Shown one piece after another: positions 21,669 to 52,525 of a stretch of 64,000 nucleotides of DNA. The DNA comes from an uncultured Verrucomicrobiae bacterium. Its GTDB lineage: Bacteria; Verrucomicrobiota; Verrucomicrobiia; Chthoniobacterales; Chthoniobacteraceae. The notes under the pieces are model-generated. The model saw only the letters and a list, made by a program, of their open reading frames with translations, did no database searches and had not been told where the DNA came from. How positions within the stretch are numbered: position 1 is the first letter of the stretch; every line of letters begins with the position of its first letter. Both the position numbers and the translations under genes were made by a program. The stretch lies in NCBI GenBank assembly GCA_963769025.1, contig CAVYKI010000003.1, positions 320,001 to 384,000 on the forward strand, given 5' to 3'.

Positions 21669-21727
21669 AGATTTGCTGGTTAGGGCCGCGGATCGATCGA
21701 GCGGAATCGTGGTCTGAATCGCAACGT

Positions 21728-23828: not shown

Positions 23829-23877
23829 GAGGAGGGAAATGATTCGTACGTGTGCGGGGAAGGGATGATTCCTTTGA

Positions 23878-26742: not shown

Positions 26743-26832
26743 TGGAGAAGTATGAAGCGCATACCTGCCGGACCGCTAATCCTTTGCTGACAACTCTTCC
26801 CCGTGGCACCGTCGCATTGCCATTTCCCTCCC

Positions 26833-27891: not shown

Positions 27892-27966
27892 GCGGCGTTT
27901 CGTAAACTGCAGGCAGAGCCCCGTCCGGCCGTCCATTCTCCCCACTCCTTTCCACCGCCACGTCCG

Positions 27967-30900: not shown

Positions 30901-31869
30901 TCAATCGCACGTATGGATGCAACACCGTCGTCGCGAGCGAAAACCTGCTCACCTACCGCTCCGGCGCCGCGGGATTCTACGACCTCGAAACCATGAGCGG
31001 CACGGCGAACCTCGGCGGCTTCAAGTCCGGCTGCACCTCGAACCTCGTCGTCGCGAACGGCGTGCTCAATGCGCCCGACTACACGCGCACCTGCACCTGC
31101 TCGTATCAAAACCAGACGTCGCTCGCGCTCGTCCACATGCCCGAGATCGAGATGTGGACCTACAGCCAGTTCGGGCTCGACGGCAAGGACGGCGAGCGCA
31201 TCCAGCGCGTCGGGATCAATTTCGGCGCGCCCGGCGATCGCCGCGCACCCGACGGCACGCTCTGGCTCGAATATCCCGACTACCGACGACGGCATCTCGC
31301 CCGGACTCGCCATCGAGATCAAGGGCGGCAAGGTCGACTGGTTTCGCCGCCACTCCTCGCAGATCACCGGCACGTCACTTCCGTGGGTGGGTGCGTCCGG
31401 ATTCACCGGAGCCGTCGAGATCATCATCCGCCCCGCGCTCCGGAAAGGGGAGCTGAAGAAGCCGCCGACATCCAAGAAGAAGAGCGACGACGATGACGAT
31501 GAACCTGCCGGCGTGATCGCGAAGATCGTGAGCAAGCTGTCCACGCCGCCAATCACGCCGGCGGTGAAACCGGCGGCGAAGCCCGTCGCCCCCGCTGCCC
31601 TTCCGCCAGCCCGCTACACGGTGCGCCTGCACTTCGCGGAGCCCGACGACCTCGCCGCGGGCAAGCGCGTCTTCTCCGTCGCACTCCAAGGCAAAAATGT
31701 CCTCGGAAATTTCGACATCGCCCGCGAAGCCGGAGCGTCGGCGAAAACACTCGTGCGCGAGTTTCCCGCCGTCGTCATCGGCAACGCCCTCAGCATCCGG
31801 CTCACGCCATCGGCCGGTTCCACAGCGGCTCCCGTCCTTTGCGGGGTCGAATTGGTCGCCGAGAAATAA
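27967..31869 (+). CDS. PQQ/BamB-like beta-propeller + malectin protein (paralogue 3), several frameshifts
   Basis: DWPMWRYDAGRT, WPARGGPV, WTHQYGD, RTYGC..KSGCT..CTCSY, NFGAPGDR, VRLHFAEP. Frame changes near 28100, 28198, 29330, 29715, 30390, 30595 and 31280. Confidence 0.8.
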
Positions 31870-31884
31870 GCCGCGGCAGCACCG

Positions 31885-32727
31885 TCAGGATCGGCCGCGT
31901 GCGGACGCTCCGAGGGCGCCGGCTACTTCGAGGAAGACGAGCTCCTTGATCCCCTCGGGCGTGAAATCGCGGTCGGTGTACTTCACGTCGTGCTTGATTT
32001 TCGAGCCGTCCAGTTCGGTGACCGAGTCGGCGCTCCGGCCACGAACGGTCATGTTGGCGGGGATGAACCGGTCGATGTCGTCGTTCGCCACCTTGGTAGT
32101 CTCGATGCGGCGGGCGAGTTTTCCAGAAGGCGTATATTTTTCGACACGGAGCGGGACGAGGCGGCGGGTGTCCACCCACGAACGCACGCTGCCGTAGGTG
32201 GAGCTCTGGCCTTTGCCCGGTTTCGATTCGAGAATCTGGCAGCTCACGCGGTCCACGACTTCGGTGCCGACGATGGCCTGCCGATCCCACGCGAAGAAGT
32301 TTTCGATGACATCCTCATACGTCAAATCACTGCCGAACAGCGCGTCACTCATCTGTTCGGCCGAAAGCGAACGGACCGAATCCGGCGGCTGGAAAAGTGA
32401 ACCGGTCGCGGAACGGTCGCCGATCCTTTTCAGGAGGACCGCCTCGCCCTTCCGCTCCCGGGGCCAGAGGACCTGGTAAACAACTTCGGATGCCGCCTTC
32501 GTGCGGCGCTGTTTGATCTGGAGTTGAAGTGCACTCTTCGTAGAGCCGGTCACATCGAGCCGGAGTCGCACGTAGGATGAGCCATCCTGCTGGGCGGCGC
32601 TGAGCCGCGCGGCGAGCTCGGCCGCTGACATGGCCGGCGCACTGTCCGCAGCGCGGACGGAAAAATTGCCGAGCACGCAGCAAAGGATGGCGGCAGGCAG
32701 ACAAAGGTGGGTCGGGCGGATTTTCAT
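31885..32727 (-). CDS. Outer-membrane lipoprotein-sorting (LolA-like) protein
   Basis: Signal peptide; RKGEAVLL, LFGSDLTYED, CQILESKP, VRSWVD..PLRVEKY. Confidence 0.8.
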   Translation of the reverse strand: MKIRPTHLCLPAAILCCVLGNFSVRAADSAPAMSAAELAARLSAAQQDGSSYVRLRLDVTGSTKSALQLQIKQRRTKAASEVVYQVLWPRERKGEAVLLKRIGDRSATGSLFQPPDSVRSLSAEQMSDALFGSDLTYEDVIENFFAWDRQAIVGTEVVDRVSCQILESKPGKGQSSTYGSVRSWVDTRRLVPLRVEKYTPSGKLARRIETTKVANDDIDRFIPANMTVRGRSADSVTELDGSKIKHDVKYTDRDFTPEGIKELVFLEVAGALGASARGRS

Positions 32728-32773
32728 GGCGGTGCGTTTCGGTAAAGGTTCGTCGTGCGAGGCATGCCATGCA

Positions 32774-33883
32774 TCAGGCGCAGACCGGGAGGTGGTTTTT
32801 CTCGTAAACTTCGACGTCGTAAATGTTACCGGACCCCACAAGCGATGAGTGGCGGAAATTCGCCGAAGCCAGGAGACAGCGCAGATTCTCCCTGCTGCGG
32901 TAGTTAAATTTCCTCCCAAACAATTCCAAAATGCGCGTGCTGGCCTCGTCCCGGTAGGTGTTGATGATCAGATGGGATTCGGGCGTCGTCATTGCGTGCA
33001 ATCTCGCTGCCAGATCCTGCGCCGTGGCCGAAGCGTCCGTCGGCTCGAGTTTGAGCCGCTGCTCGGTGGTGGCGTAGGAAAAGCCCTGAAAATACTCCAG
33101 GATGCCCATTGCGGTGACCACATCATACTTTGCCGGACCCTCCTGCCCGTGATCCGCGAAAATGTCCTCGGTCTCCGCTGAAATCCCGTGGCCCTTGCTG
33201 TGGCAAAATTTCGCCCCCTTGGTCGTCGCGAGTTTTTCCAGCAGGCGGTTCGCCTTTTCGATGTTCCCCTGCTCCCGGTCGGTGATGATCGCGGTGATCA
33301 GCTCGGGCCTGTAGCCATCCCGAACGAGCCTGTCGTATGCGAGGATCATGCTCAGGCCGGTGCCCGCCGCCACCGCTTTCAGGCGGACCCGCTCGCCTCG
33401 GTCGAGCCAGCGCTTCGCGGCATCGTACGTCGCCCGCGTTTCCCATGCGAGCCGGAGCTGCACGTCCTTCCCCTGGACCGAGTCAAAAAAGATCCGATCC
33501 CACATTCCGCCGTTCATCCTGAGCTCGGGCGCGATCATCATGTAGTGGCCGTTCATCGGATCTCCTTCGATCAAGGCCGCATTTTCCTTCCTGGAAGATC
33601 CCATCAGCGACCCGGCGAAACCATGCTTGCACCGTTTGAGGATGGCATTGGTGAAGACCGCAACTCCGGCGTTTCCCTCGCCCACGCCCCTCTCGGATTT
33701 CGTCGTCAATCGGAGGATCTGGTAAAAAGCCCTGGCGAAAGTTCTCCGGATGCGCCCGGCAGGCCTCTTGTCCTTGGTGGTGAAGATGACGCGGCTCAGG
33801 CTCGCGACGATCGATTCCGAAGATTCATGGTGGTCGGCGGAATAGAGTGCCGCGACCGCTTCCAAGGGCTGGAAATTTTTCAT
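32774..33883 (-). CDS. Putative class I SAM-dependent methyltransferase-like protein
   Basis: LKAVAAGTG (motif I-like), IITDRE (acidic motif II), YDVVTAMGILEY; N-terminal half not recognised. Confidence 0.6.
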   Translation of the reverse strand: MKNFQPLEAVAALYSADHHESSESIVASLSRVIFTTKDKRPAGRIRRTFARAFYQILRLTTKSERGVGEGNAGVAVFTNAILKRCKHGFAGSLMGSSRKENAALIEGDPMNGHYMMIAPELRMNGGMWDRIFFDSVQGKDVQLRLAWETRATYDAAKRWLDRGERVRLKAVAAGTGLSMILAYDRLVRDGYRPELITAIITDREQGNIEKANRLLEKLATTKGAKFCHSKGHGISAETEDIFADHGQEGPAKYDVVTAMGILEYFQGFSYATTEQRLKLEPTDASATAQDLAARLHAMTTPESHLIINTYRDEASTRILELFGRKFNYRSRENLRCLLASANFRHSSLVGSGNIYDVEVYEKNHLPVCA

Positions 33884-33961
33884 TGGGAATCTCGCTGCGT
33901 CGCCGGACTGAACGGAACCAAGCCGGCTGCTGGCTGAGGAGGGAACGATAGGCAGGATCGG

Positions 33962-35077
33962 CTACCCGTAAAGGGCCAGACTGGGCGAAAGTCGCGAACT
34001 GCGCCATGCCGGATACAATCCGCTGAGGATTCCGACCGCGACGGCGATGGCCACGGAGATGAGCACGAGGTCGGGGCCAAAGTCCGGCTCCAGCAGTCCG
34101 CGCACAGCCGGCGTCGTTTCGAGGACCTTCAGTCCGATGGCGCCCATGATCACGCCGGTCACGCCACCCAGCAATCCGAGCAGGGCGGACTCACACAGCA
34201 CCATGTAAACAATGCGCCGCCGCTTCCACCCGACGGCCAGGAGGATGCCGATTTCGTGGGTCCGCTCGAACACGGTCATCAGCATCGTATTCATCACGCC
34301 GAGAATGCCGACCACGATGGCAAGGATCGAAGTGCTCCAGCTCATGGCCCTCGCGATTTGGAATCCCTGGCTGGTGCCGACCACTTCCCGCGCCACCATC
34401 GCGCGCCCTTCCGGAAAGATTTCCTTAATCGTGCCGCAAAGCGCGGCCACCTCGTCTTTCGTCGTGTTGGGGATGACGCGGATATCGATGAAATTGATCT
34501 TTCCTTGGTTCTCCGTGACCTCCTGCAGGACGGGAAGGGCGAGGATGATCGCGCCATTCTCCACCACGGCCTGACCATCCACGATTCCCACCACTGGCAA
34601 TTCCGCGGCCTCGATCTGCACCGTGTCACCCACCTTTTTCTTGAGCACTTCAGCCGCCAACCGGCCCAGGACGACCGCGCGCTCACTGGCGTCGCGCGGC
34701 AGTCTTCCTTCGATCACTTTCACCTGATCCCATGTGAACCCGCCCCACTCTCGCCCGGAAACCATCATCATCGGCGCATCCTCGATGCTCAGCATTTGCA
34801 TCAAGACGGAAGTCACTTCCGAGACCCGCGGCAGCTTGGCGATCCGGTCCTTTAGCGACTCATCGTACACCTTCGGCATGATGCCTCCGCTCATGTTGCT
34901 CACCACCACGTCGATACCCATCACGTCCAGTTGCTTGGTGATGCTCTTCTCGTAACCCCACGCCATCCCGACCAGCGCCACGACCGCCGCGATGCCGATG
35001 GAGATGCCCACCAGCGTGAGCGCCGTGCGCACCGGGCGCCGCAGCAGCCCCCGCACGATGATGGTGAAAAAGGTCAT
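33962..35077 (-). CDS. ABC transporter permease, MacB/LolE/FtsX family
   Basis: RTALTLVGISIGIA, MNTMLMTVFERTHEIGILLAVGW, YPAWRSSRLSP. Confidence 0.92.
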   Translation of the reverse strand: MTFFTIIVRGLLRRPVRTALTLVGISIGIAAVVALVGMAWGYEKSITKQLDVMGIDVVVSNMSGGIMPKVYDESLKDRIAKLPRVSEVTSVLMQMLSIEDAPMMMVSGREWGGFTWDQVKVIEGRLPRDASERAVVLGRLAAEVLKKKVGDTVQIEAAELPVVGIVDGQAVVENGAIILALPVLQEVTENQGKINFIDIRVIPNTTKDEVAALCGTIKEIFPEGRAMVAREVVGTSQGFQIARAMSWSTSILAIVVGILGVMNTMLMTVFERTHEIGILLAVGWKRRRIVYMVLCESALLGLLGGVTGVIMGAIGLKVLETTPAVRGLLEPDFGPDLVLISVAIAVAVGILSGLYPAWRSSRLSPSLALYG

Positions 35078-35078
35078 G

Positions 35079-35813
35079 TCAGCCGGCTTTGGTGGTGAAG
35101 GTGGATTTGCCGTCGGAGACGATGCGCCCGTCCTTCATCTGAATCGTGCGCGAGGCCCGCTTCGCGATGGAAAGATCGTGCGTGATGAGCACCAGCGTCA
35201 TCTTCCGCTCGCGGTGAAGGCGGGTGAGAAGCTCCAGGACGTGTTCGGCATTCTTGCTGTCGAGGTTGCCGGTCGGTTCGTCGGCAAGCAGGACCGAAGG
35301 GCCGTTTGCAAGGCTGCGCGCGATGGCGACGCGCTGCCGTTCGCCGCCGGAAAGCTTCGCGGGGAAATGATCGAGCCGGTGCTCCAACCCCACGGCCTTC
35401 AGCAATTCCACAGCCTGCTCCGTTCGCTCCGACGCGCTGCGTTTCGTTTCGAACATCGGGATCTGCACATTCTCCAGCGCCGTGAAGGTCGGGAGCAGAT
35501 GAAACGCCTGGAAGATGAACCCGATTTCGCGGGCCCGATACTCCGCGGGGTCGTGCAAGCGGCCGAGCGAACCTCCGCGGTAGAGAAGGGTTCCTGCACT
35601 CGGTTGATCGAGCGCGCCGAGCATCTGCAGCAGCGTGGTCTTTCCGCATCCGCTCGGGCCGGTGATGGCGACGAACTCGCCCTCGGCGATGTGGAAATCC
35701 ACGCCGCGCAGCGCCTGCACCTGGCCGTCGTCAAATTCCTTCATCAACCCGGCCGCGTCGAACACGCGCTCCGGCGCTCCATCCGGATCAGCATCGGTCG
35801 TGTCGGCGCTCAT
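35079..35813 (-). CDS. ABC transporter ATP-binding protein, LolD/MacB family
   Basis: [32 protein letters not shown]. Confidence 0.95.
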
Positions 35814-37480
35814 CGGGCTCCTTTCAAGATCTCCATCACAGCCTTTACCGTCTTGGGCTTCTCGATGCAGACGTGCATGTAGGGGACGGTCGTCTCCGAG
35901 GCGGCTCCCGGCAGATGCGCGCTCCAGTAGGGCACGACGCCATCGCCTCGCGTTTGAAAATCAGCCACCCCGCGCGTGGCGATGATGGAATGATAGCTGA
36001 CGCTCATCGGCCGCTGCGCCAAAGCAATGAAGAAGGGATGTCCGGTGGAACAATTCTCGGTTCCCTCGATGCCCCAATTGTGGAATCCGCGCAGTGTCGG
36101 ATGAATGAAGGATGGAGGAAGCGCCGCCAGTGCCTGCACCTGTTCCTTGGCAGTTTTCGGCAGGAAGAGGATGACGCGCAGCACCGTCTGGACGATGCCC
36201 ACGTCTGCAAGCACGCTGCCCTGGTGCGGCGTGGCGACAAACACGACGGTCTTCACGCCGGGGGCGTGTTTGAAGAACAGCGCACCCTGCAGCACGCGCT
36301 GCGTCCTGGCATCGACCTGACGCGCCACCTTTCTCGGTGGGACTGCAAAAAATGAGCGCCAAAAATCCGGCCCCGAATCAATGGCCTGCATGCGCGTCAG
36401 CAATCCGCCCATGCTGTGCCCGACCAGAACGACGCGGTCGAACCCGGGATCCCGATGTTCGGGATCCAGCGTGTCGCGCGAGCGTTTCAGCAACTCCCGC
36501 AGCCGTGCAGCCGAGACAGGGATAGGCAGCTTGGATGGGTAAAAGAAACAGGCGGGCTGATAGCGGCGGCGGAGTTCGGGGTCGGCCAGCAGTGCGTTGA
36601 CGGAATTCTTCCAAATGACCGGCCCGGAGTGCAGCCCGTGGACGAAGACGACGGGCACTTTGTTGCGGTCGTAGCGATTGAGAAAAAATAACTGCGACTC
36701 GTCCTCGCCGGACGCTGATGGAGCCACGCTACGTCGCCCATCGGCCTCGCGGATGGAATCCGTCAGCGACAATTGCAAAGCGGCGGTGAGATTTTCCGCC
36801 AGCAGCCGGGCATGGTTCGCCACCGTCACGACCGAGACCTTCAGCGGATTGTAAAAACGGACCCTTGCCTCGGCAGGCTGACCGGGAGCTTTTGCAGGGA
36901 ACTCCAGCATCGCAGTCGCCGAAAGAAACTCGCCGCGCGGAGGATGGAAGGGCTGGGCTGCGCGCCGGGAATCCGGTTGTGCCAGCACCACCGGAACGCC
37001 AATCCCGCCACGCGACACCACCCGGTCAAAGCCGGTCAATTTCACATCGCTGGCCAGCGTGCAATGGGCGAACTCCGCGAGCGCCAGCGTACGCCCGGAG
37101 CCATGTCGCACGGGGGCATCGAAGGTCACCCGCCACGGCTGCGCGCCGCGCACTTGGAATTCCTTGGCCCACGCGGCGGTCCCTTCACTTGCACGCAAGC
37201 CCTTCACCACTGCGACCACGGCCCGGTCGTATTTCCGCAGGGCATTTTGTGCCGCCACACTCCCGGGCTCCTCCTGCAGCATGACCTGCCACGCTTTGTA
37301 CGCCTTATCCAAATCGGATGCGGTGCGCGCGCCTGCGGTTGGATGCACCGCAGTGGTCTTGATCCCCTGGCACGCGGGGAGAAATACAAACACTGCTCCG
37401 GCGATGACCAGCGAGCGTGACCAGCGGGTCAGGCGTCCGCGGGCAGTGACGTCCGCAGGCGTGGGAAGTGAATGCGTCAT
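35810..37480 (-). CDS. Lipase/esterase-like alpha/beta hydrolase, probable lipoprotein
   Basis: Lipobox-like FLPAC, VFVHGL, GHSMG, ATPHQGS, DGVVPYWS; ATGA overlaps on both sides. Confidence 0.85.
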   Translation of the reverse strand: MTHSLPTPADVTARGRLTRWSRSLVIAGAVFVFLPACQGIKTTAVHPTAGARTASDLDKAYKAWQVMLQEEPGSVAAQNALRKYDRAVVAVVKGLRASEGTAAWAKEFQVRGAQPWRVTFDAPVRHGSGRTLALAEFAHCTLASDVKLTGFDRVVSRGGIGVPVVLAQPDSRRAAQPFHPPRGEFLSATAMLEFPAKAPGQPAEARVRFYNPLKVSVVTVANHARLLAENLTAALQLSLTDSIREADGRRSVAPSASGEDESQLFFLNRYDRNKVPVVFVHGLHSGPVIWKNSVNALLADPELRRRYQPACFFYPSKLPIPVSAARLRELLKRSRDTLDPEHRDPGFDRVVLVGHSMGGLLTRMQAIDSGPDFWRSFFAVPPRKVARQVDARTQRVLQGALFFKHAPGVKTVVFVATPHQGSVLADVGIVQTVLRVILFLPKTAKEQVQALAALPPSFIHPTLRGFHNWGIEGTENCSTGHPFFIALAQRPMSVSYHSIIATRGVADFQTRGDGVVPYWSAHLPGAASETTVPYMHVCIEKPKTVKAVMEILKGAR

Positions 37481-38440
37481 TCCCGGTGGGCAGTCGTCCG
37501 CCATTGGGCGCCGACGCGCGGGTCGCCGAGGTTGCGGAGCAGGTGCAGCAACGCATGCCGATAGCTTGGGAACGGATGGATTTCGTCCTCCGTCCGCGGC
37601 GTGAGCTCCGCGGCGTGCAGCGGCAGTTCCGCGTGCGGGATCCCCATCCGAATGTGATGCACGCCGTGGTACGGCTCGTGAAGCAGCGTGAAGGCGACGA
37701 GCCGGCCGGGCCAGCCCCTCGCGACGATGCTCCGCGTCGAGCTGTTCACCGTGTCGCCCGTGAGACCGACGTGCTCGATGTATTTCCGCCAGCTCTGCAA
37801 GTTCGCGGCGATATACGCGGGCACCAGATACATCCACAAAAGGTAGCGCCACCCGTTCCAATGCCACGCAGCGAGCACGATCGCCAGTCCACACGACGAC
37901 GATCAGCGCGTACTCCTGCCAGATTCTCCGGCGCACTTTCTTGCTGCGAATCGGCGAACCGGCGCGGAGGAAAATCCGCAGGAACAGGACCGGCAGGAAA
38001 ACGAGTCCGACGGTGAGTTCGAGGATCGCCGCGAGAATCCTCCCCCAGCGCGGCGCCGTCGGATGGACGAACGGCCACAGTTCCTCATCGCGCTCGGTGG
38101 CCAGGTGCATGTGGTGGAGCTGATGCGCGGCGCGGTAGAGGCTGAAGCTCATGAAGCTGAACAGCCCGAGAAGGACGCCATCGAATTCGTTGAAGCGCCG
38201 ATTTTTCCGCAGCAGGCCGTGCGTCGCCTCGTGAAAACCGACCGCAGCCCCGTGCATGAGATGGCTGAGGACCAGGACGAGCGGCACCGCGAACCAGAGC
38301 GACACTCCGCTCTGCAAAACCAACGCCAGCGCGATCTCGGTGATGAGGATCAGAATGATCAGGATTTGAAACGCCGAGCGGCTCACCCAGTGGGGCTCGT
38401 GCATCTCGGTCGATCGCTCCATGGTTTGCGTGGTGTTCAT
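37477..38440 (-). CDS. Membrane fatty acid desaturase/hydroxylase family; one frameshift at ~37885
   Basis: Three His boxes HEATH, HQLHH and HGVHH plus TM segments, split over two frames. Confidence 0.88.
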
Positions 38441-39807
38441 CGCAGTTCGCCCATGAGGGCGGAGGTCAGGATTTCCGGCGACTGGCAGGCGCCCTTGAGG
38501 ACCGCCTCAAACATGCGTCCGAGGTGCCGGATTTCTTCGGCGGAAAACATATCCAGCCGGAACAGCCACACCACCTCGAGTCCGTCGCCCTCCTCGGTGA
38601 TTTCGCAGCCGAGGTCGAAGCGCGCCGTGCCCGTCGAGCGCATCCGCAGCTTCGGCGAAAAGCCGGGCAGCGAGATGTCGGGAACGGGATGATTTTGCAG
38701 CGCGAAGCGCACCTCGAAAACCGGATTGCGGCCCGGCACCGGCGCTTCGCCGAGCGCCTTGGCGAGTTCGGCAAAGGGCATGGCATTGGCGAAGGCATTC
38801 GACCGTGGCCTCATGCACCGCGCGCAGGCTGTCGGAGAATGACCGCGTGCGATCCACCTGGCCGCGCAGCGGCACGATGCCGGAAAAGTAGCCCATCGTT
38901 TCGCGCACGGCCTGTTTGTTGCGATTCGCCACCGGCGTGCCGACGAGGATGTCGTCCGCGCCCGTCCATTGCGAGAGCGTGATCTGGAATGCCGCCAGCA
39001 GCGTGCTGAAGAGCGTCGCGCCGTCGCGCCGCGCGCAGCTCCCGCACGGCGCGGCCGAGTTCGGCGGAGAGATTGCATCGCCCAGCGCTCGCGCTCGCCG
39101 GCCGGCGGCGTCGGAATCCGCGGGCGGACTCCAGAGCCGGCGCGTTCCGGCGAGCTGCGCTTTCCAAAACGCGGCGCGCGCGCGCGAGTTCCGCCGGCTG
39201 CCAGAATGCACGCTCGGCGGCGCCCCACTCGGCGTAGGTGAGCGGCACGGGCGGCAGCGGGCCGTGCACGCCTTTCACGCGTCTCCATGTAGGCGCGCGA
39301 ACAGATCCTGCACGAAGACGCCGAGCGTCCAGCCATCGGCGATGGCGTGATGGATCGCGAAGACCAGCACGTGATCGTCCGCCGCGCGCCGGAGCACTTC
39401 CACGCGATAGAGCGGCCCCTGCACGAGGTCGAAGGGCTCGCGGAAAATCTCCGTGCGCCAGTTCCTCGATCGCCTCCGGGTGCGCTTGCGCCGGCGGAGA
39501 GCTCGCGGAATCCGAGCACTGGCCTCGCCGGTCTTGCCGGACCATCTGCACCGGCCGCTCCTTGCCCGGCAGAAAGGACAGGCGCAGCACCTCCTGCCGC
39601 TCCACGACCCGCTGCATCGCCGTCTCGCAGATCCGCCGGCGTGATCGGGCCGCGCATCGTGATGAGGCAGCAGATGTGGTTCGCCGGATCGCCGACCGGG
39701 ACCGGCGACGCCTCCCACAGCTCGCGCTGCGGAAAGGTCAGCGGCTGGAGGCGGGCTTCCCCGCTCTCCAGCCATTGCTTCAGCCGGGCTCGGTTATCTT
39801 GTGACAT
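38437..39807 (-). CDS. Stand-alone NRPS-type condensation domain protein (multiple indels)
   Basis: PLTFPQRELW, RQEVLR, PFDLVQGPLYR, active site HHAIADG, VGTPVANR, FEVRFALQN; no A or PCP domain. Confidence 0.85.
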   Translation of the reverse strand: MSQDNRARLKQWLESGEARLQPLTFPQRELWEASPVPVGDPANHICCLITMRGPITPADLRDGDAAGRGAAGGAAPVLSAGQGAAGADGPARPARPVLGFRELSAGASAPGGDRGTGARRFSASPSTSCRGRSIAWKCSGARRTITCWSSRSITPSPMAGRSASSCRICSRAYMETRERRARPAAARAAHLRRVGRRRACILAAGGTRARAPRFGKRSSPERAGSGVRPRIPTPPAGERERWAMQSLRRTRPRRAGAARGATARRSSARCWRHSRSRSRNGRARTTSSSARRWRIATNRPCAKRWATFPASCRCAARWIARGHSPTACARCMRPRSNAFANAMPFAELAKALGEAPVPGRNPVFEVRFALQNHPVPDISLPGFSPKLRMRSTGTARFDLGCEITEEGDGLEVVWLFRLDMFSAEEIRHLGRMFEAVLKGACQSPEILTSALMGELR

Positions 39808-42800
39808 CCGACGATTTCAGGGTCGCGGTTTCGTCCGCGGGTTGCTTGGGATCCGGCGCTGCCTCCTCGCCGAGCAACTGGTCGATGTCCTCGTCGGAAA
39901 GCGCGTCCAGATCCACGTCATCGGCGGGCGCCTCTTCCGCGGTCACGGGCGCTGCGGCGGCCGGCTTGGCCGCGCCCGCTCCGCCGCCCATGTGCTCGGC
40001 GATCAAGGTCGCGATCTGGCCGATGGTGCGCGCGCGCATGAGGCTCGTCGGGCGGCAGGGCGACGCCGATGGCGGCTTCGAGCGAGTTTTCGATTTCGAC
40101 GCCCATGAGCGAGTCGAGCCCGAGGTCGGTGAGCGGCTGATCGTCGCGCAGGCTCTCCGGCTTCACGCGCAGCACCGAGCCGACGACTTCGCGCACGGCC
40201 TGGCCGATGACGCCCTCGCGTTCCTCCGGCGCGGCGGCTTCGATCCGGCAGCCGCCAGTCGCTCGTCGCGCCGCTGGTTTCCTGGCTTTCGACGCCGCCG
40301 GCGAAGATGCGCTCGAGCAGCGGATTCTCCTGCATGCCGCGGAAGGACTGCCGCCACTTGGCCCAGTCCACGCGGATGGCCGTCGACCTGCGCGGCGTGC
40401 CGCGCGTGAGGAAGGATTCGAGGAGCGTGGTGACCTCGCCCGGCGAGAGCGCGCGCGGTGCCCTGACGGGCGAGGAATTCGGCGACGCGCTCGTTGCGCG
40501 CGACGTAGCCTTCGCCGCCGAGCACGCCCCAGTTGATCGTGAGCGCGGGCAGGCCGAGCGCGCGGCGATGATGGGCGAGCGAATCGAGGAAGGCATTGGC
40601 CGCGCCGTAGTTGCCCTGCGCGGGATTGCCGAAGATGCTCGAGACGGACGAGAACATCACGAAGCAATCGAGCGCCATCGCCTTGCGTGTCCTCGTGCAG
40701 CAGCCATGCGCCGTGCGCCTTCGGCGCCATGACGGTCCGCATGCGCTCGCGGGTGAGCGCGGAGAGCGGCGCGTCGTCGATGACCATCGCGAGGTGGAAG
40801 ATGCCCTGCAGCGGCTGCGCCTGCGGAGCCGGCTTCCTCGATGCAGGCGCTTCACGTCCTTCGGCGAGCCGACGTCCGCCTTGACGACCTTCGTCGTCCA
40901 CGCCGCGGCTCTTCAGCTTCTCCACAAAGGCGACCGCCTCCGGAGTGGAGGCGCCGCTGCGGCTGCGTGAGCACGAGGTGACGCGCGCCGCATTCCACGA
41001 GCCATTCGGCGAGCACTCTGCCGAATCCGCCGAAGGCCGCCGGTGATGAGATAGCAGCCGTCCGCCTTGACCGCGAAGGCCGGCAGCGAGCGGTTCGCCG
41101 CGCCGCGGGACGAATGCCTCGGCGAAGGCGACGACGACCTTGCCGATGTGCTTGCCGCCCGCCATGAGGCGGAAGGCCGCATCGATGCGGCTGGCCGGGA
41201 AGGAGCGGAACGGGCAGCGGCGTGAGCGCGCCCTTCTCCACGAGCCCGGCGATCTCCGCCAGCAGCTCGCGCGTCAGCGCTTCGTCGCCGGCGAAGACGG
41301 CGTCCATCGCGACGACGTGGAACGAGGCGTTGCGCCGCAGCGACCAGAGCGGGATGCGCGAGTTCTGGTAGATGTCGCGTTTGCCGATCTCGATGAAGCG
41401 GCCGAACTCCGCGAGGCAGGAGAGGCCCATCGGGATCGCCTCGGCGGCGAGCGCGTTGAGCACGACGTCCACGCCGCGGCCGTTCGGTCAGTTCCATGAC
41501 CGCCTCCGCGAAGTCGCCGCGCCGCGAGTCGATGACGTGCTTGACGCCGAGCGTCTTCGAGCAGCGCGCGCTTGGTCGGGCTGCCGGCGGAGGCGATGAC
41601 TTCGGCGCCGAGGTGATGCGCGATCTGGATCGCCGCCATGCCGACGCCGCCCGCGCCCGCGTGGACGAGGATGCATCTCGCCGGCCTTGCATCCGCGCGA
41701 CGTTCTTCAGCGCATACCACGCGGTCATGAAGACGACCGGGATGCGTCGCCGCTTCCTCGAAGGAAAGGCCCTTCGGCATGCGGCCGCACATCGCCGCCG
41801 CGCGCGAGCGTCTGCGTGGCCAGGCCGAAGACGGCGAGACCGAAGACGCGGTCGCCCGGCCGCGACGTGCGTGACGCCTTCGCCGACCGCAGTCACGATC
41901 GCCGCCGACTTCGTCGCCGAAGATGCGCGCATCCGGCGTCTCCGCCGGGATAAAGCGCGAGCGCCTTGAGCACGTCGCGGAAGTTCATGCCCGCGGCCTT
42001 CACCTCGATCGAGCACTTCGCCGGGTCCGCAGCGGCGGCAGCGCGAACGGCGTGAAGCGCAGGTGTCGAGCAGGCCGCGCTCGCGGGATTCGAGGCGCAG
42101 CGGGATGCGAGGCATCGAGCTGCTGCTCGCGCGCGGGCATGCCGCGGTCGAGGCGCTGCACGTAGCGCGCCTCGCCGCGGAGGGCGATTTCGCGCTCGGC
42201 TGTCCAGATGGCAGCAGTTCGCTCCAGAGCGAGGCCGACATCGGTCTTGCGACGGCTGCCGGCGGCAGGTCGATGCCGCGGCAGGCGAAGTTCGGATGCT
42301 CGTTGAGGATCACGCGGAAAAGGCCGATCGACGGGCGCCTGCGCGACGGCGGTGGCGCCCATGTCGCGACCCGCCGGCTGCGCGCCGCGCGTGACGAGAT
42401 CGATGCGGAGCTTGGCCGCGGGCATCGTGCCTTCCAGCGCGTGCGTGAGATGGAGCAGCGAGTCGATGCCCATGAGCGCATCGTCCTCGTTGCCGCCCGT
42501 TTTCGCATCGAGGCTCCAGAGGTAAACGATCCGCTCCGGCGGCGCGTCCGCGGCGACGGTTCGCGAAAAGCTGCTTCCAGTCGTCCGGCTCCTCCGCGCG
42601 AAGGGTGAAGGCGTCCGCGCCCTTCGCGGCGAAAGCCGTTGCCGCGGCGGACGACGCGGCAGCGCGCGCCGGCGGACGTCACGCGGGCGATCGAGCTCGT
42701 TCGCCGAGTTCCGGACTCATCGGCAAAGATGAGCCACGACGTCTCGACTGGCGCGTCGGTCGCTCCGGATTCAGCATGGACCGACGCGGCGTCGCCGCGC

Positions 42801-45800
42801 CTTCCGGGCGAGGAGGCCGATCTGGCCTTCGCCCTTCCGGCCCGTGCAGGCCCGGCGAGCGAAGCCGTTTCCGCGAAGCCGCTTTCGCGGAGCGCGGATT
42901 CCCACTGCGCGCGCTGGAGCAGCGGCTGCTCCGGGCGCAGGTCGCGGTCGGTGAAGCGCCACCAGCCGCTGGTCAGGCCGAAGACGGATTCCGTCCAGAG
43001 CTGCGGCGTGGCGACATCCATGAAGACGAGGCGTGCCGCCCGGCACGAGCAGCTCGTGCAGGTGCCGCAGCGCGGCGCGCACGTCGGCCACGGCGTGGAG
43101 CACGTTGGTGCCGATGATGAAGTCGAAGGAGCCCGGCTCGAAGCCCTGCTCGGCGCCGGTTTTTCGAGGTCGAAGATCTTGTATTCCACCTCGGGGAAGG
43201 CCGCGAGCTTCTGGTTCGCCGCCGGGGAAGAAGCCCGCGGAGACGTCGGTGAAGGTGTAGGAATGCAGGCCGCGCTCGAGCAGCGGCAGCACCTGCGCGC
43301 GCGAGGCCGCCGGTGCCGGCGCCGACTTCGAGGATGCGCAGGCCGCGTCCTTCCGGCAGATGGCGCGCGGCTTCCTGCACCGCGGCGGCGATGGCCGCCA
43401 TCCAGTGGCTGGTGAACAGGCCGTCGCCGTAGAATTGATCGAGCAACTCCGCGTCCGGGACCGCTGAAGAGAACCTGCACGGCATCTTTTTCGCCGCGCA
43501 GGATCGGGCCGAATTCGGCGCCGGTGGCCGCGCAGAGCAGGCCTTCCGGCAGGTGGCCCGGATGCTCCGCGATGAACGTCGCGCAGCGCCTCGTGCGCCG
43601 AGTCGGCCGCCTTGCCGAAATTTCGCCGTGGGCTTGTAAGTGCCGCCTTTGGCTGTGAGCAGGCCGCGGCTTGCCGAGCTTCGTCATCAGGCGCTCGAAA
43701 ACCGGTCTGCATCGGCTGCGGCGACGCCGAGCGACTCCGCGGTGAATCCCTTGCGCGACGACGGGTCGACGCCCATCTCGCGCAGGCCATGCGCGAGCTG
43801 CACGGCGGCGAGATCGTCCTCGGCGGCCATGCAGCGCCTCGAGCTTCGGCACGACCCCGCAGGCTGACGACGTCTTCGAAGCGCACTCGACGGCGACATC
43901 CCGGAGACGCGCGAGCGGCAGCGGGCTGCTGCGGCGCGGGAGCCATCGTGGACGGCGTGCGCTCCCACCCGACGTGGTAAACCAGATCGCGGCCTCCGCC
44001 GGACGCGCCGGGGCGGCGGGCGGCCGTGCACGCTGATGGCGCGGAAGCCATCCACCAGCACGCACGGCTGGTCCGGCCTCGTCATAGAGCGCGATCCGGC
44101 CTTCGATGAGTTCCTCGTTGAACTGCAGCACCCGCGCGGTGACGCGCGCTGGCAGCGCCGGGCGAGCGCAGGAAAAGGATGCGCGCGAAACGCACCGGCA
44201 GCTTCATCTTCGCGCGGCGATCCTCGATCGTTTTCGCGCCGGCGGAGAAGACGTGCAGCGCGCCATCGAGGAGCACCGGATGCAGCGCATACTCCGGCGC
44301 GCGGCCCGCGCTTTTCTCCGAAAGCGACACCTTGCCCGCGGACTTTCCGCCGCCCGCGAACAAGCTCGCGGACCGCGCGGAACTCGTCGCCGTAGCGCAG
44401 CCCGAGATCGCTCATGTGGCCGTAGAACTGCCCGATGCCTTCGCGGCTCGAGTTCGCTCCCCGGCGTTTCCCAAGTCGTCGCGCCAAAGGACGACTCCGT
44501 GCGCTCGCCGCGCATCGAGCCGACGACATGCACCGACCACGACGCCGCCTGCTCGAAGCGGCTCTGGATCGTGAAGGTGCGCTCGCTCGGCTCGTAGGTC
44601 AGCTCGAGCGACACGCCCGACGCGGGCTCGGGCAGGATGAGCGGCTTGCGAATCTCAAAGTCCTCGATGACAAACGGACGGCCCTCGAACAATTGCACGC
44701 CGGCTTCCAGCGCCATTTCGACAAAGGCCGCGGCGGGAAAGATGACGTGGCGTCTCGACCTTGTGATCCTTGAGGAACGCCATGTGGCGGGCGTCGAGAC
44801 GGGCGGTCCACGTCGGCGTCGCGCGCGGCAGGCGCGATGTCGAGCAGGCCGCGGCCGCCGGGGCCGAGGCGGCCTTCGCGCCAGTCGCTGGATTCATTCC
44901 ACCAGCGGCTCCTGTCCCACGCGTAGGCCGGGAGCGAGAGCAGGCGGCGCGAGGGCGTCATCGCCGCGAAATCGAGCGCGCACGCCGGCGCGATGCAGAT
45001 CCATCGCGGTTTCGAGCAAGGACTCGTGCTCGCGTTCGCGGCGGGCGGAGGAGAGGACGGGCGGCCTTCGCTGCCGCCGCGCGGCGAGGCATTCCTGGAT
45101 GGAATGGACGAGCGCGGGATGCGCGCTGATTTCCAGCCAGACATCGACGCCGAAGTCGGCCAGCGCGCTGACCGCGGGCGCGAACTGCACGGGCTGGCGG
45201 ATGCCGCGGCCCCAATGCGCGGCGTCGCAATCTTTGCCGGCGCAGACGCGTCGCCGGTGACGGTGCTGAAAAACGGAACGGTCTCCGCCTGCGGCTCGAG
45301 ATCGCCGAGCGCCGCTCTCGAGCGCATCGGCGGCGGGCTGCATCAGCGCGTGATGGAACGGATGATCCACGCGCACGAGCCGCGCGAAGACGCCCTGCGG
45401 CTCCAGTTCGGCGAGCATGGCCTCGAGCGAGACGCGCGGGCCGGAGAGGGTCAGCGAGCGCGGGCCGTTGAAGGCGGCGATGGTGCACCGTGCGGTCGTG
45501 GCGGCGATCAGCGCGCGCGCCTCTTCCTCGGCGAGACCGACGGCGAGCATGGTGCCTTCGCCGCGGGCGCATTCGTCCATGAACTGGCGCGCAGCACGAT
45601 GATCGCGCGCGCCTTCCTCCAGGCTGAGAACGCCGGCGACGCAGGCCGCGGCGATTTCGCCGACGCTGTGGCCGACGATGGCGGCGGGCTGCACGCCCCA
45701 GGACTTCCACAGCTCCGCGAGCGCGACCTGCATCGCGAAAATCGCGGGCTGCGCGATTTCCGTGCGGCTGCATCTGCGATGTTCTTCCTCGGTGCGCCCG

Positions 45801-47590
45801 AGTTCCTCGAGCAGCGAGAACTGCGCCTACGGCGCATCGCCGCGTCGCAGCGCTCGATGGTCTCGCGGAAGACCGGCTCGTGCCGCATGAGCTCGCGGCC
45901 CATGCCCCACCATTGCGGACCCTGGCCGCTCATGACGAAGGCCGACGCGCGGCGCGTGCTCCGGACGCGGGGTGAAGGACGGTGCGGACCTTCGGCCCGG
46001 TCGCTGCCGGCCGGCGAAGGCCTCGAGTTCCTGCGCCAGTTCGCTCGAGCGACTGCGCGACCACCGTGAGGCGGTGCGAATGGTGATTCCGCCGCGCGCC
46101 GAGCGTGTAGGCGAGATCGGGCAGCAGCGGCGGAGCTGCCATTGCGCGTTCGCGCGCTCCTCGAGCCACGCGCCGAGCTGCGCGGCGGATGCCGCGCAGC
46201 GCTTCCTCGGAACGCGCGGAGAGCACGAGCGGCCAGCGCACGTTCGGTGGCCGGGCTCGGGATGCTCGGGCGCGCGGACGTGCGGGGGCTTCCGCGAGGA
46301 TGACGTGCGCATTCGGCGCCGCCGAAACCGAAGGAATTGACGCCGACCATGCGCGGCCCGTCCGTCTCGGGGAACGGCTCCAGCGTCGTCGGCACGCGCA
46401 GCTTCAGCTCTGCGAAGTCGATGTGCGGGCTCGGCGTCTTGAAGTGCAGGCTGGCGGGGATCTGGCCGTGCTTGAGCACGAGCAGCCGCCTTGACCAGGC
46501 CGGCGACGCCGGCGGCGGTTTCGAGGTGGCCGAGGTTGGTCTTCACCGAGCCGATCGGCAGCGGCTTGTCCGCGGGGCGGTCCACGCAGAGCGCCTCGGC
46601 GAGCGCGTGCGCCTCGATGGGATCGCCGACCGCGGTGCCGGTGCCGTGCGCTTCGACGAAGCCGACTTGCGAAGGCGCGATGCCCGGCGTCCTTGCAGGC
46701 GTCGCGCACGAGCCGGGCCTGCGCCTCCGGGCTCGGGAGCGAGATGCCATTGGTGTGGCCGTCCTGATTCATCGACGGTGCCGACGATGACGCCGTGGAT
46801 CGGGTCGCCGTCCGCGATGGCCTGCGAAAGGCGCTTGAGCAGCACCATGCCCGCGCCTTCGCCGCGCACGAAGCCGCTGGCCGACGCGTCGAACGCCTCG
46901 CAGCGCCCCTCGGGCGAGAGCATGCCGGCCTGCGAAAATCCGATGAATCCGCCGGGCGTGATCATCACCGTCACGCCGCCCGCCAGCGCCACGTCGCCGC
47001 GGCCGCGTCCAGATGTGCTCGCACGCCGACATGCACGGCGGTCAGCGCGGAGGAGCAGGCCGTGTCCATCGCGACGCTCGGGCCGCGGAGATTGAAGCAG
47101 TACGAGATGCGATTCGCGGCGATGCTGTGCGCGCTGCCGGTGGGCGAGTGCGGCGCTGATGCCCGAGCGAATCCGCACGGCGTGCCCTGGATGATCTGGT
47201 AGTCGTTGTGCGAGATGCCCGACGAAGACGGCGATGTCGGTGCCCTTCTCGAGATCGAGCACGAGCCCGGCGTCTTCGATCGCCTCCCAAGCCGTCTCCA
47301 GCAGCAGACGCTGCTGCGGATCGACGTAGGGCGCTTCGCGCGGCGAGATGCCGAAGAACTGCGGATCGAACTGGTCGATCTGACTCCAGAAATCCGCCGC
47401 GCTTGGCGATCGATTTGCCGGCGATGCCCGGCTCCGCATCGTAGAAGCGCTCCACGTTCCACCGGTCGGCCGGCACTTCGCAGACCGCCTCGCGGCCCTC
47501 GGTCAGCAGCTTCCAAAATGATTCCGCGTCGTTGACGCCGCCGGGAAAGCGGCAGCCGATTCCGATGATGGCGATACCTTCTTTGGACAT
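39794..47590 (-). CDS. Type I polyketide synthase KS-AT-DH-cMT-ER-KR-ACP (many indels)
   Basis: [121 protein letters not shown]. Confidence 0.92.
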
Positions 47591-47811
47591 TGAGGGAAGC
47601 ATAGCATCCGGCTCGCCACTCGCGTCACGCGCATTTTTCAGATGCGAACCGTTGCGGAAGGGGTCCCGCGGTGTATTTTCGTGCGCGCCGTTGGAGGCGT
47701 TAAGTTTGGCCATTCACCGCTGAATCGCGGCCGGCCGGCGTTCTGGCTGTGCAAAGATGTCAGATTAATACGGATTGGCCGGCGACGAGCGGCGAAGTAC
47801 AAGGAATCATC

Positions 47812-49810
47812 ATGTGCGGCATCGCAGGAATCATCGATCTCGTCCGGGCACCGACCCGTTCCGGAGGGGGCCATCCAGGCGATGTCCCGGGCGCTCTTCC
47901 ATCGCGGGCCGGATGAGGAGGGCTTCCTCCTGCGCCCGGGGCTGGCGCTGGCGTCGCGGCGGCTGAGCATCGTCGGGCCTCGCGGACGGCCAGCAGCCGA
48001 TGTCGAACGAGGACCGGAGCGTGTCCGTGGTGTTCAACGGCGAGCTTTTCGACCACGTCGAAAGGCGGGCCGAGCTGACGGCCGCGGGCATCGCTCGCAC
48101 ACGCATTGCGACACGGAGATCATCCCGCACCTGTGGGAGGAGCATCAGGAGGGGATGTTCGAGCGGCTGCGCGGACAGTTTGCGATCGCGCTGTGGGATG
48201 AAAGGCGGCGGCAGCTCATGCTCGGGCGCGACCGCTTCGGCATCGCGCCGCTCTACTGGACGCGGCAGGGCGACTGGCTGCTCTTTGCCTCGGAGATCAA
48301 GGGCCTGCTCGCCTCGGGAATGGTGCCGGCGAAGCCCGATCTGCGCGGGCATCGATCACATGTTCACCTTTTCCGCCATGCCGGGGCCGGTGACGTGTTT
48401 CGAAGGCGTGCAGCTTCTGCGCGCCGGGCCACTTTTTGGAGATCACGCCGGGCGACGCAAGGCGGCACGGCGCCTGCCGTCAGCGAGCGCGCCTATTGGG
48501 AGATGGACTTCCCGGATCAGGGCGACGAGGATCCGGGCGACGATCCGCAGAAGCTGGTGGATGAGTTTGAGCAGGTCTTGCTCGGAGCGGTGGAAAAACG
48601 GCTGCGCGCCGATGTGCCGGTCGGCGCGTACCTCTCGGGCGGGCGTGGATTCGAGCATGATCGTGGCGCTGGCCTGCAAGCTGAAGGGCCCGGCGATCAA
48701 CACCTACACCATCCGCGTGGACGACCCCGCGCTCGACGAACTCAGCGCGGCCAATCTTTCCGCCCGGCACATCGGCACCAAGCCGCCGATCGTGCAGGAC
48801 TTCCGCGCCGACGACGCGCTGGCGACCTATCCCGAGCTGATCCAGGCCGCCGAGGCGCCGGTCATCGACACCTCCTGCGCGGCGCTGCTGCAGCTCGCAA
48901 AGCGCGTCCACGCCAGCGGCCAGAAGGTGGTGCTCACCGGCGAAGGCGCCGACGAATGGCTGGTCGGCTATCCTTGGTACAAGGCTGGACCAAGCTGATG
49001 GGCATGCTCGATGTCATCCCCGGCCTGCGGCTGAGCGACGTGGCGCGCCGCGCGTATCTCCGGCTGAACAACGTGCCGCAATTTTCCCCGTGCGTCGCGC
49101 GCGGCGTGGAGGAATCCATCGGCGGGCCGAATGCGTGGATCGATTCCTACGGCCTGCTCGCGCTCTCGAAGCTGCGCTTTTACGCCGAGCCGATGCGGGA
49201 AGTGCTGCGACAAGACCGGCCCGTGGGCCGAACTCGGCATCGATCTGGAACGCGCCAAGCGCTGGCATCCGCTGAATCGCGGCATCTGGGTCGGCGGCAC
49301 GCGTCACGCTCGCCGGACATCTGCTGCAGGCAAAGGGCGATCGCGTGGCCATGCATTCCTCGGTGGAAGTGCGCTACCCGTTCCTCGACGAGGACGTCTT
49401 CGATTTCACCGCGAAGCTGCACCCGAACTGGAAGCTGCGCGGCTTCCGCGACAAACACCTGCTGCGCCTGCTCGCCGAGCGCTGGCTGCCGCCGCAGATC
49501 GCCCGCCGCAGCAAGGTCATCTTCCGCGCGCCGCTGGACAGCTTCCACATGGACCCCGAGCCGAAATTCGTCGCGGAACTCCTGAGCGAGGAATCGCTGC
49601 GCCGCACCGGCTATTTCGACATCGCCGGAGGTGCAACACTGGCGGAAAGACTTCCGCAAGATGCGCGCCGGCTCGCTGCCGCGCCTCTCGGTGGAGATGG
49701 GCCTGTGCGCCGTCGTCGCGACGCAGCTCTGGCATCACACATTCATCGACGGCTCGCTTGCCGACCTGCCCACGAGGGCGGGTTCCGGCAACACGGTGCA
49801 GCCGCGCTGA
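47812..49810 (+). CDS. asnB: Asparagine synthetase (glutamine-hydrolysing)-like amidotransferase (several indels)
   Basis: MCGIAG Ntn start, HRGPD, VFNGE, RDRFGIAPLY, LSGG(V)DSS, LTGEGADE, SVEVRYPFLD. Confidence 0.9.
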
Positions 49811-49931
49811 ACGACATCGCGGCAACCGATGTGCGGACGGATACATCCGACATGTCCACCGCCCGCGATAGGAAGGCGGAGGGCTACAGTCGCTGCGGAT
49901 CATTCCGGCTCACAGCAGCCCGACCCTTGTC

Positions 49932-50165
49932 ATGAAACGAAACATCCTCATCGGCGGCGCGGCAGAAACCGGAGAAGCGGGTCCTTTCCAAACGGGACAG
50001 GGGCCAGCGGAGGACACCCTTTCTCTGTCCCCTCCTGCCAAACCGACGCAGGTCATCACACGAATGATCCTCCGGCTCCCCTCCGCGCCGGCGCTCCCGG
50101 GTGAAGGTGCCGTCGCGAGCGAGAGTCCGGCCGCCGAACCGCTGAAAGTCGACACGGGCTGCTAA
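49932..50165 (+). CDS. Possible small hypothetical protein
   Basis: Short ATG ORF filling the intergenic gap; no motif. Confidence 0.25.
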   Translation: MKRNILIGGAAETGEAGPFQTGQGPAEDTLSLSPPAKPTQVITRMILRLPSAPALPGEGAVASESPAAEPLKVDTGC

Positions 50166-52518: not shown

Positions 52519-52525
52519 TTCGCAG

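Follow-up and report, generated by a model that had tools for sequence, protein, structure and literature searches.

An uncharacterised, conserved verrucomicrobial locus joins a predicted single-module methylating polyketide synthase to Lol-like export genes

In the phthiocerol dimycocerosate (PDIM) and sulfolipid lines of mycobacteria, a fully reducing type I polyketide synthase (PKS; Mas or Pks2) builds a methyl-branched chain, an enzyme with an HHxxxDG motif off-loads it, and an ATP-binding cassette (ABC) transporter and a LolA-fold carrier stand alongside. The off-loading enzyme of the PDIM line is a PapA5-type acyltransferase. Excerpts of one account place Mas, DrrABC, MmpL7, and LppX in these lipid lines (PMC11539658). 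Here we describe a locus with comparable parts in a diderm of another phylum, at positions 31885–49810 of a 64,000-nucleotide stretch (the window; contig CAVYKI010000003.1, positions 320,001–384,000) from an uncultured Verrucomicrobiae bacterium. It encodes a single-module PKS, a stand-alone condensation (C) domain, a membrane desaturase, a Lol-like pump and carrier, and a divergent AsnB-type amidotransferase. The locus is real, conserved, and uncharacterised: An envelope lipid made by a PKS and served by dedicated export is a known theme, and the parts found here differ from the described systems on most defining features. No published description of the locus was found in the full-text literature, in a search that left subscription journals largely uncovered.

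The mycobacterial lines are close in outline and distant in detail. Mas is the best solved relative of the PKS (1042 bits), and LppX (2byo) is among the fold matches of the carrier. Whereas the PDIM line takes its branches from methylmalonyl-CoA, pairs an ABC-2 transporter with a resistance-nodulation-division (RND) pump, and uses a lipoprotein carrier, the present locus combines an in-line C-methyltransferase (cMT) domain with a malonyl-type acyltransferase motif (HPFH), a C domain of the nonribosomal peptide synthetase (NRPS) type, a pump of the MacB/LolCDE type, and a soluble carrier, and adds AsnB and a desaturase. SupA, the "sponge symbiont ubiquitous" PKS, is another small, mono-modular enzyme whose domain order includes an MT domain. 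It is proposed to make methyl-branched fatty acids, the product being unproven; the likeness is one of description, not of sequence, and in excerpts of the two sources, neither a free C domain nor an AsnB, desaturase, or LolA-like partner is mentioned (PMC4245539, PMC3908369). Aryl-polyene and flexirubin loci (ApeL/ApeM/ApeN; LolA2/LolB2) couple a polyketide-like lipid pathway to a dedicated LolA-like outer-membrane chaperone but, as excerpted, do so with enzymes resembling type II fatty acid synthases, an RND pump, and a LolB-like partner (PMC8253772, PMC11885536), where the present locus has a PKS of type I and a MacB/LolDE-like pump and lacks a LolB-like gene.

The core genes stay together across species. 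A C-domain alignment scan, taking one genome per species, gave 265 relatives; the best 80 loci were searched for neighbouring genes (tblastn, E ≤1e-8, at least 50% query cover), with only loci carrying enough flank counted for each gene. KR/ACP sequence lies upstream of the C domain in 71 of 72 loci and KS sequence in 52 of 53, a desaturase gene lies downstream in 70 of 71, and AsnB is divergent in 45 of 52 and at the far end of the operon in one more. Near the C domain, the ATPase is found in 45/53 loci, the permease in 44/53, and the LolA-like gene in 42/53, with all three export genes in 40/53; in L034, L053, and L061, the LolA-like gene lies beyond reach because of extra genes. Linkage is far above chance, as the arrangement recurs in dozens of species. 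An initial annotation made from the window alone had proposed that the genes are linked and had said that unlinked relatives would speak against it; the synteny check found the core linked in related loci. Its wider interpretation stood for the module type, the coupled C domain, the desaturase, the Lol-like trio, and the linkage. AsnB belongs to the core. Its hydrolase (4/53 loci) and methyltransferase (5/53) are accessories, not core, and the type of its C domain has been refined, as described below.

The locus is widespread across orders but patchy. Among the best 80 loci, 79 are labelled Verrucomicrobiota—including Chthoniobacterales, Candidatus Udaeobacter, Terrimicrobiaceae, Prosthecobacter, Luteolibacter, Akkermansiaceae, and Pedosphaera—and the exception is a 1.6-kb contig labelled Rhizomicrobium. 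The genus labels Prosthecobacter, Luteolibacter, and Chthoniobacter occur among the matches to metagenome-assembled genomes. Of 24 genomes of the same genus, nine gave orthologues at 62–70% identity to a query made from a piece of the AT, and of 16 others in the order, one did. The PKS frame is open, at 2447–2614 aa, in that last genome and in eight of the nine from the genus; the ninth (G024) ends at a contig end after 1189 aa. An even draw of 400 genomes across the phylum held an orthologue (>650 bits) in three, all of one genus of another family, and gene order was complete in the two of these that were checked. This patchiness argues against a universal envelope component. In public metagenomes, the C-domain protein forms at least 2036 clusters at E ≤1e-80.

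Eight co-oriented minus-strand genes, from 31885 to about 47600, and AsnB on the opposite strand (47812–49810) make up the locus in the window (Table 1). The PKS stop region and the C-domain gene start overlap by 14 nt (39807–39794); the C-domain/desaturase, desaturase/hydrolase, and hydrolase/ATPase junctions are ATGA overlaps; and 1 nt separates the ATPase stop from the permease start. The gap between PKS and AsnB is 209–221 nt depending on the PKS start chosen (47590 or 47602), no Rfam family was found in it, and the AsnB stop codon occupies 49808–49810. Pfam identifies ketoacyl-synt, Acyl_transf_1, PS-DH, Methyltransf_12, ADH_zinc_N_2, KR, and PP-binding on the open PKS pieces, and Condensation, FA_desaturase, Abhydrolase_6/PGAP1, ABC_tran, MacB_PCD plus FtsX, LolA_like, and GATase_7 plus Asn_synthase on the other genes. 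These results bear out the initial annotation in its particulars: It had listed eight co-oriented genes and a divergent AsnB, and Pfam recovers every domain it stated; the one 14-nt overlap, three ATGA overlaps, and 1-nt spacing it gave are exact; its gap of ~220 bp falls within the measured range; and its single PKS module without a TE or A domain agrees with the domain order of an intact orthologue. The HPFH motif it reported is present, its free C domain has the HHAIADG motif and is translationally coupled to the PKS, its desaturase retains three His boxes, and the trio it called Lol-like is so by family and by fold.

The intact PKS orthologue of a relative (G030; 2567 aa) has the Pfam order KS-AT-DH-cMT-ER-KR-ACP. 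The motifs of the orthologues are DTACSS, HGTGT, and NLGH in KS; GHSVG in AT; HRVENLVVFP and DGAMQ in DH; NVLH in cMT; GGVG in ER; GAFGGFG and YGAAN in KR; and GLDSL in ACP. Such retention of catalytic motifs among orthologues supports a single module that would be fully reducing and C-methylating. The protein lacks a loading module and ends in an acidic tail after the ACP; by Pfam, neither the present locus nor that of G030 encodes a TE, an A domain, or a separate carrier protein. Its best NCBIfam rows, PKS_plus_SDR and Pks2, are both below cut-off, the Pks2_ls1_myc equivalog reaching 1247.9 bits against a cut-off of 2400. The orthologues share the KS-AT-DH-ER-KR-ACP order and intact motifs of a Mas-like enzyme but not its methylmalonyl-specific AT, having instead the HPFH motif and an inserted cMT domain. 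AT motifs of the HPFH type are read as malonyl-specific, and with the in-line cMT this suggests malonyl extender units methylated by S-adenosylmethionine (SAM). A remark on IAFH in an excerpted source echoes this reading of the AT motif (PMC3908369). By analogy with Mas, the PKS probably acts iteratively.

The intact C-domain orthologue covers profile positions 5–443 of 456 in PF00668 (201 bits); HHAIADG is invariant in seven orthologues, and a conserved basic stretch precedes the Pfam domain at the N terminus. Its best PDB matches are the NRPS proteins Txo2 (189 bits) and TycC (182 bits). A PapA-type acyltransferase was considered and rejected: The protein is NRPS-type by sequence, and PapA5 is absent among the 58 PDB matches of the C-domain profile (E ≤0.001). 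VibH, which uses free norspermidine, is likewise an HHxxxDG enzyme that stands alone, with no A or PCP domain of its own, but it is distant in sequence (1l5a, 21.6 bits), and the donor here would be the ACP of a PKS. NRPS C domains usually take a PCP-bound acceptor. No adjacent A domain or PCP that could supply one was found in the locus; the sole carrier domain of the G030 locus is the PKS ACP, and other NRPS genes of that genome lie ~200 kb away. With no A domain, PCP, or head-group genes linked, the acceptor would be a common metabolite, most likely a free amine or alcohol. The acidic PKS tail, the basic N terminus of the C protein, and a start codon lying inside the PKS stop region together suggest docking and direct off-loading.

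In the window, the three His boxes of the desaturase read HEATH, HQLHH, and HGVHH, and an orthologue scores 112.7 bits on PF00487. The protein atlas returned only generic "fatty acid desaturase" clusters for the desaturase, and neither it nor the hydrolase has a PDB sequence match under E 0.2.

Among NCBIfam models, LolD scores best on the ATPase (249 bits vs. a cut-off of 307.75), the export models MacB, DevA, and DarD reach 177–203 bits, and the lolCE models give 46–63 bits on the permease against a cut-off of 362; AsnB is the only protein of the locus to which NCBIfam gives a specific name. The permease is 77% identical to its orthologue in G015 and 371 aa long in nearly all of 55 orthologues. 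The carrier has a signal peptide without a lipobox in 46 orthologues. It matches PF17131 (LolA_like) only and not PF03548, the mark of canonical LolA, and G030 has a separate canonical LolA outside the locus. Its structure model (mean predicted confidence, pLDDT, 89.1) is closest to the structural-genomics LolA_like proteins 4z48, 3bk5, and 3buu and to LolA3 of Porphyromonas gingivalis (9tp6), at TM 0.64–0.86 and E 1e-14 to 1e-19 (TM 0.72–0.86 for 4z48, 3bk5, and 9tp6); LolA, LolB, LppX, and LprG score lower. These best matches share PF17131 with the carrier but only ~20% identity. The function of LolA3 is not known, and it does not pair with LolB, according to excerpts of its description (PMC13103446).

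Complex prediction for the carrier and the periplasmic domain of the permease gave a median ipSAE of 0.41 (runs 0.59, 0.29, and 0.41), against 0.00 for the best of three controls; a like complex, LolA–LolC (6f3z), is already solved, so that this pass may reflect likeness to it. Partner pLDDT was at least 87, and the runs agreed in at least 58% of contacts. Of 157 solved complexes, 116 reach the mark used, as do 2 of 215 mismatches; values at or below 0.60 account for 18 of the 157 and for both mismatches.

Two further genes are accessories. The hydrolase has the lipobox FLPAC in the window and AASC or VTGC in two homologues, with the nucleophile motif GHSMGG; the lipobox indicates a periplasm-facing lipoprotein. 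The 369-aa protein has no Pfam or NCBIfam match, and its 529 homologues are all named "hypothetical." Its structure model (pLDDT 80.7) has PsoF, the CMeT of the citrinin PKS, and the CMeT of CurJ as best Foldseek matches (E ~1e-9, TM 0.43–0.46, probability 1.00) and is also near small-molecule O-methyltransferases; AAGTG, a glycine-rich SAM loop, is invariant in 31 sequences of the family. The model thus predicts a class I SAM-methyltransferase fold. In two loci (L034 14321–18178 and L053 10773–14630), a 1285-aa protein with a patatin-like phospholipase domain lies between the methyltransferase-fold and lipoprotein hydrolase genes, the three being inserted together between ATPase and permease. 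This protein has no tblastn match (E ≤1e-5) in the present genome. With the lipase-like lipoprotein hydrolase, it makes up the lipid-acting accessories of the variant loci.

We consider it probable that these parts form one pathway, in which a methyl-branched chain made by the PKS is joined to an acceptor by the C domain, desaturated, and moved towards the outer membrane by the LolDE-like pump and LolA-like carrier. The single-module PKS would build a methyl-branched fatty chain from malonyl-CoA extenders, taking its branches from SAM through the cMT domain; its acidic tail would dock on the basic N terminus of the C domain, which would join the chain to a free amine or alcohol. Next, the membrane desaturase would introduce a double bond, and the LolDE-like ABC pump and periplasmic carrier could pass the lipid on towards the outer membrane. 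AsnB would amidate a carboxyl, either on the finished head group or on a malonyl starter, and in this genome the SAM methyltransferase and the periplasmic lipoprotein hydrolase may tailor the product further. Iteration, the acceptor and its bond (an amide or an ester), the sequence of reactions, and the final site of the lipid are all inferred.

Several observations weigh against this pathway. At least one export gene is missing within 10 kb in 13 of the 53 loci, all three in seven, and the locus as a whole is patchy even within its genus. Every Lol-family NCBIfam score is below cut-off, the architecture present being ABC_tran with MacB_PCD and FtsX, and docking of the carrier on the permease has weak support from the predicted complexes. 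Genes for a LolB-like acceptor at the outer membrane, a membrane-fusion protein, or TolC are absent from the locus. The C domain is of ordinary NRPS type in its sequence, with no PCP-bound acceptor encoded nearby, and one round of the PKS on a fatty-acyl primer would fit as well as iteration does. A search of public sequencing runs returned no RNA run for the locus, only six DNA runs holding 5–7% of its words.

A more specific product can be proposed only tentatively: an undescribed outer-membrane lipid with a desaturated, SAM-methylated polyketide chain, a small amide-linked head group, and a carboxamide cap made by AsnB. This possible lipid would be the first free lipid, as opposed to a lipoprotein, with a dedicated Lol-type ABC-plus-chaperone route, and might be a signature envelope component, perhaps a biomarker, of the Verrucomicrobiota abundant in soil, which include genomes labelled Candidatus Udaeobacter. 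The Chthoniobacterales and related groups rank with the most common bacteria of soil, and hardly any work has been done on their envelopes. The locus itself is compact and strongly conserved, brings together a polyketide synthase and a Lol-like carrier line of its own, and occurs in organisms from soil and freshwater. If the proposed pathway is right, it would add a lipid class that is new and might serve as an environmental biomarker, offer a test case for whether LolDE/LolA-type machines move free lipids, and provide a rare bacterial single-module methylating PKS with release by a C domain acting in trans.

The AsnB step admits an alternative that is compatible with the proposed pathway. The G030 orthologue scores 400 bits on TIGR01536 (cut-off 267.1), AsnB begins MCGIAG with an N-terminal Cys, and two other intact copies are present in this genome and one in G030; AsnB of the locus is thus an additional, dedicated paralogue, and its glutaminase Cys is intact. 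AsnB homologues of the glutarimide and gladiolin pathways amidate, or are proposed to amidate, starter units, according to excerpts of a preprint (bioRxiv 10.64898/2026.04.24.720606). Here, correspondingly, malonyl on the PKS ACP might be amidated to a malonamyl starter, giving a terminal carboxamide that the accessory hydrolase could remove later; we regard this as a possible but rather doubtful course. It would suit a PKS without a loading module beside a core, divergent, glutaminase-competent AsnB, and it has precedents in the same preprint, as excerpted: GbnC acts on succinyl-ACP, MgsD-type enzymes are proposed to act on malonyl-ACP, and an amide hydrolase, GbnM, follows. In those systems, too, a glutamine-dependent AsnB homologue adjoins a type I PKS without a normal loading module. 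They are, however, trans-AT systems that use a separate ACP (GbnA, MgsC), whereas the present PKS is a cis-AT single module in a locus with no discrete ACP; the hydrolase occurs in only 4/53 loci, and the likeness to GbnC and MgsD is known from descriptions, not sequences.

A second conserved PKS-NRPS locus, at G000:C9:111500-131300 of this genome and at L099 1379–19814 and L100 276–4948 in a relative, also contains an AsnB gene, together with an AMP-binding enzyme, KS-AT-KR-ACP and KS-AT-C-A-PCP-TE proteins (the latter with two carrier-domain matches), an ABC-2/Wzt transporter, glycosyltransferases, and LpxB. This second locus may serve a lipopeptide or glycolipid pathway connected with a polysaccharide export system. 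As evidence on the AsnB–PKS link, this second AsnB beside PKS genes was set aside: The relative's locus (G014) lies in a Wzm/Wzt-glycosyltransferase context.

It is unlikely that the locus instead makes a small molecule for secretion, for instance a fatty amide signal, surfactant, or antibiotic, expelled by a MacB-type pump with the LolA-like protein as a periplasmic binding or self-protection factor. Small molecules are among the known substrates of MacB-type pumps, the MacB, DevA, and DarD export models match the ATPase, and a patchy distribution is typical of secondary metabolism. One locus without the ABC and LolA-like genes (L060) has an OEP-HlyD-AcrB set downstream instead. The core, however, links a soluble carrier of the LolA superfamily in most loci and contains no membrane-fusion or TolC-like gene, and the membrane-bound desaturase and lipid-acting accessories point to a substrate that resides in the membrane. 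The tripartite efflux set of L060 (15004–20283) lies a few kilobases downstream of the desaturase; it may be an alternative exporter, one such locus having been looked at.

The copy in the window is interrupted by ~67 frame switches relative to intact orthologues (per gene in Table 1), and a decaying pseudogene cluster with real frame shifts is a very improbable account of them. In its favour, the switches are concentrated at 37.9–49.8 kb (38–50 kb in a codon-phase scan), all five genes that follow the desaturase have open frames, and the PKS bin has the highest phase-switch count (23) among 1328 4-kb bins of the genome. Yet 3565 aligned codons contain no stop and are 70–77% identical to orthologues, and 52 of the 67 switches are in one direction, net +1 nt. 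In four public sediment runs, short contigs from related organisms omit one letter of the PKS at 10 listed places, seven of which are frame junctions (40049, 41212, 41939, 44752, 44980, 45944, and 46777). The essential rpoC of the same genome (G000:C3:128439-132440) is likewise split over frames, into nine pieces, and 34 of the 1328 bins, on 8 contigs, have at least 14 phase switches. The source assembly has 13 contigs and 83% completeness, as would fit long-read data in which some indels remained. The absence of stops, the split rpoC, and the letters missing from related contigs at seven junctions identify the breaks as assembly indels, not decay, and any pseudogene call in a genome with such uncorrected patches needs care.

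Two causes of the indels were examined and rejected. The longest homopolymer near junctions is 2–4, equal to that in random pieces, and a stretch at 50–52 kb with a G+C of 0.688 has one switch, which speaks against high G+C alone. The patch is sharply local, at 38000–50000 of the window; it might stem from low local coverage or from mixed strains at the polishing stage.

That the chain is put on a protein, giving a specially lipidated lipoprotein sorted by the Lol-like genes in place of a free lipid, is highly improbable: LolCDE and LolA do normally move lipoproteins, the accessory hydrolase is itself one, and the same alternative has been raised for aryl polyenes (PMC8253772, as excerpted), but no lipoprotein substrate gene is conserved in the core and the hydrolase occurs in few loci. 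We know of no C domain that acylates proteins.

Table 1. Features of the locus in the window
Feature	Position	Strand	Basis
LolA-like periplasmic carrier, 280 aa from ATG 32727	31885–32727	-	Pfam LolA_like, 93.5 bits; signal peptide ending VRA/AD, no lipobox
369-aa accessory protein, predicted class I SAM-methyltransferase fold	32774–33883	-	Structure model
MacB/LolCE-type permease, 371 aa, MacB_PCD + FtsX	33962–35077	-	Pfam
ABC ATPase, LolD/MacB-like	35079–35813	-	ABC_tran, 120.5 bits
Accessory lipoprotein alpha/beta-hydrolase; other start 37504	35810–37480	-	Abhydrolase_6/PGAP1; lipobox FLPAC; nucleophile GHSMGG
Membrane fatty-acid-desaturase family protein; one frame switch near 37885	37477–38440	-	FA_desaturase
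Stand-alone condensation (C) domain protein; 5 frame switches	38437–39807	-	Condensation fragments (Pfam)
Single-module PKS, KS-AT-DH-cMT-ER-KR-ACP, ~2590 aa; 51 frame switches; other start 47602	39794–47590	-	Pfam, intact orthologues
Divergent intergenic region, PKS/AsnB	47591–47811	.	Sequence read
AsnB-type glutamine amidotransferase, starts MCGIAG; 10 frame switches	47812–49810	+	GATase_7 + Asn_synthase

The flanks are unrelated to the locus. To its left (18654–31869) lie genes for large, apparently secreted proteins that contain PQQ/BamB-like beta-propellers and malectin domains; one of these proteins also has a methyltransferase domain. To the right of AsnB (50866–54093) are a PAS-HisKA-HATPase-receiver hybrid kinase and a KaiC-like double ATPase; neither occurs in six related loci annotated on the downstream side, the far side of AsnB not having been annotated in relatives. 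Within the PKS gene, on the plus strand at 46541–46615 and antisense to KS-coding DNA, is a sub-threshold Rfam match to ASpks (39.2 bits vs. a gathering score of 52). ASpks is a mycobacterial small RNA antisense to pks genes; the match is most likely an echo of KS sequence conservation.

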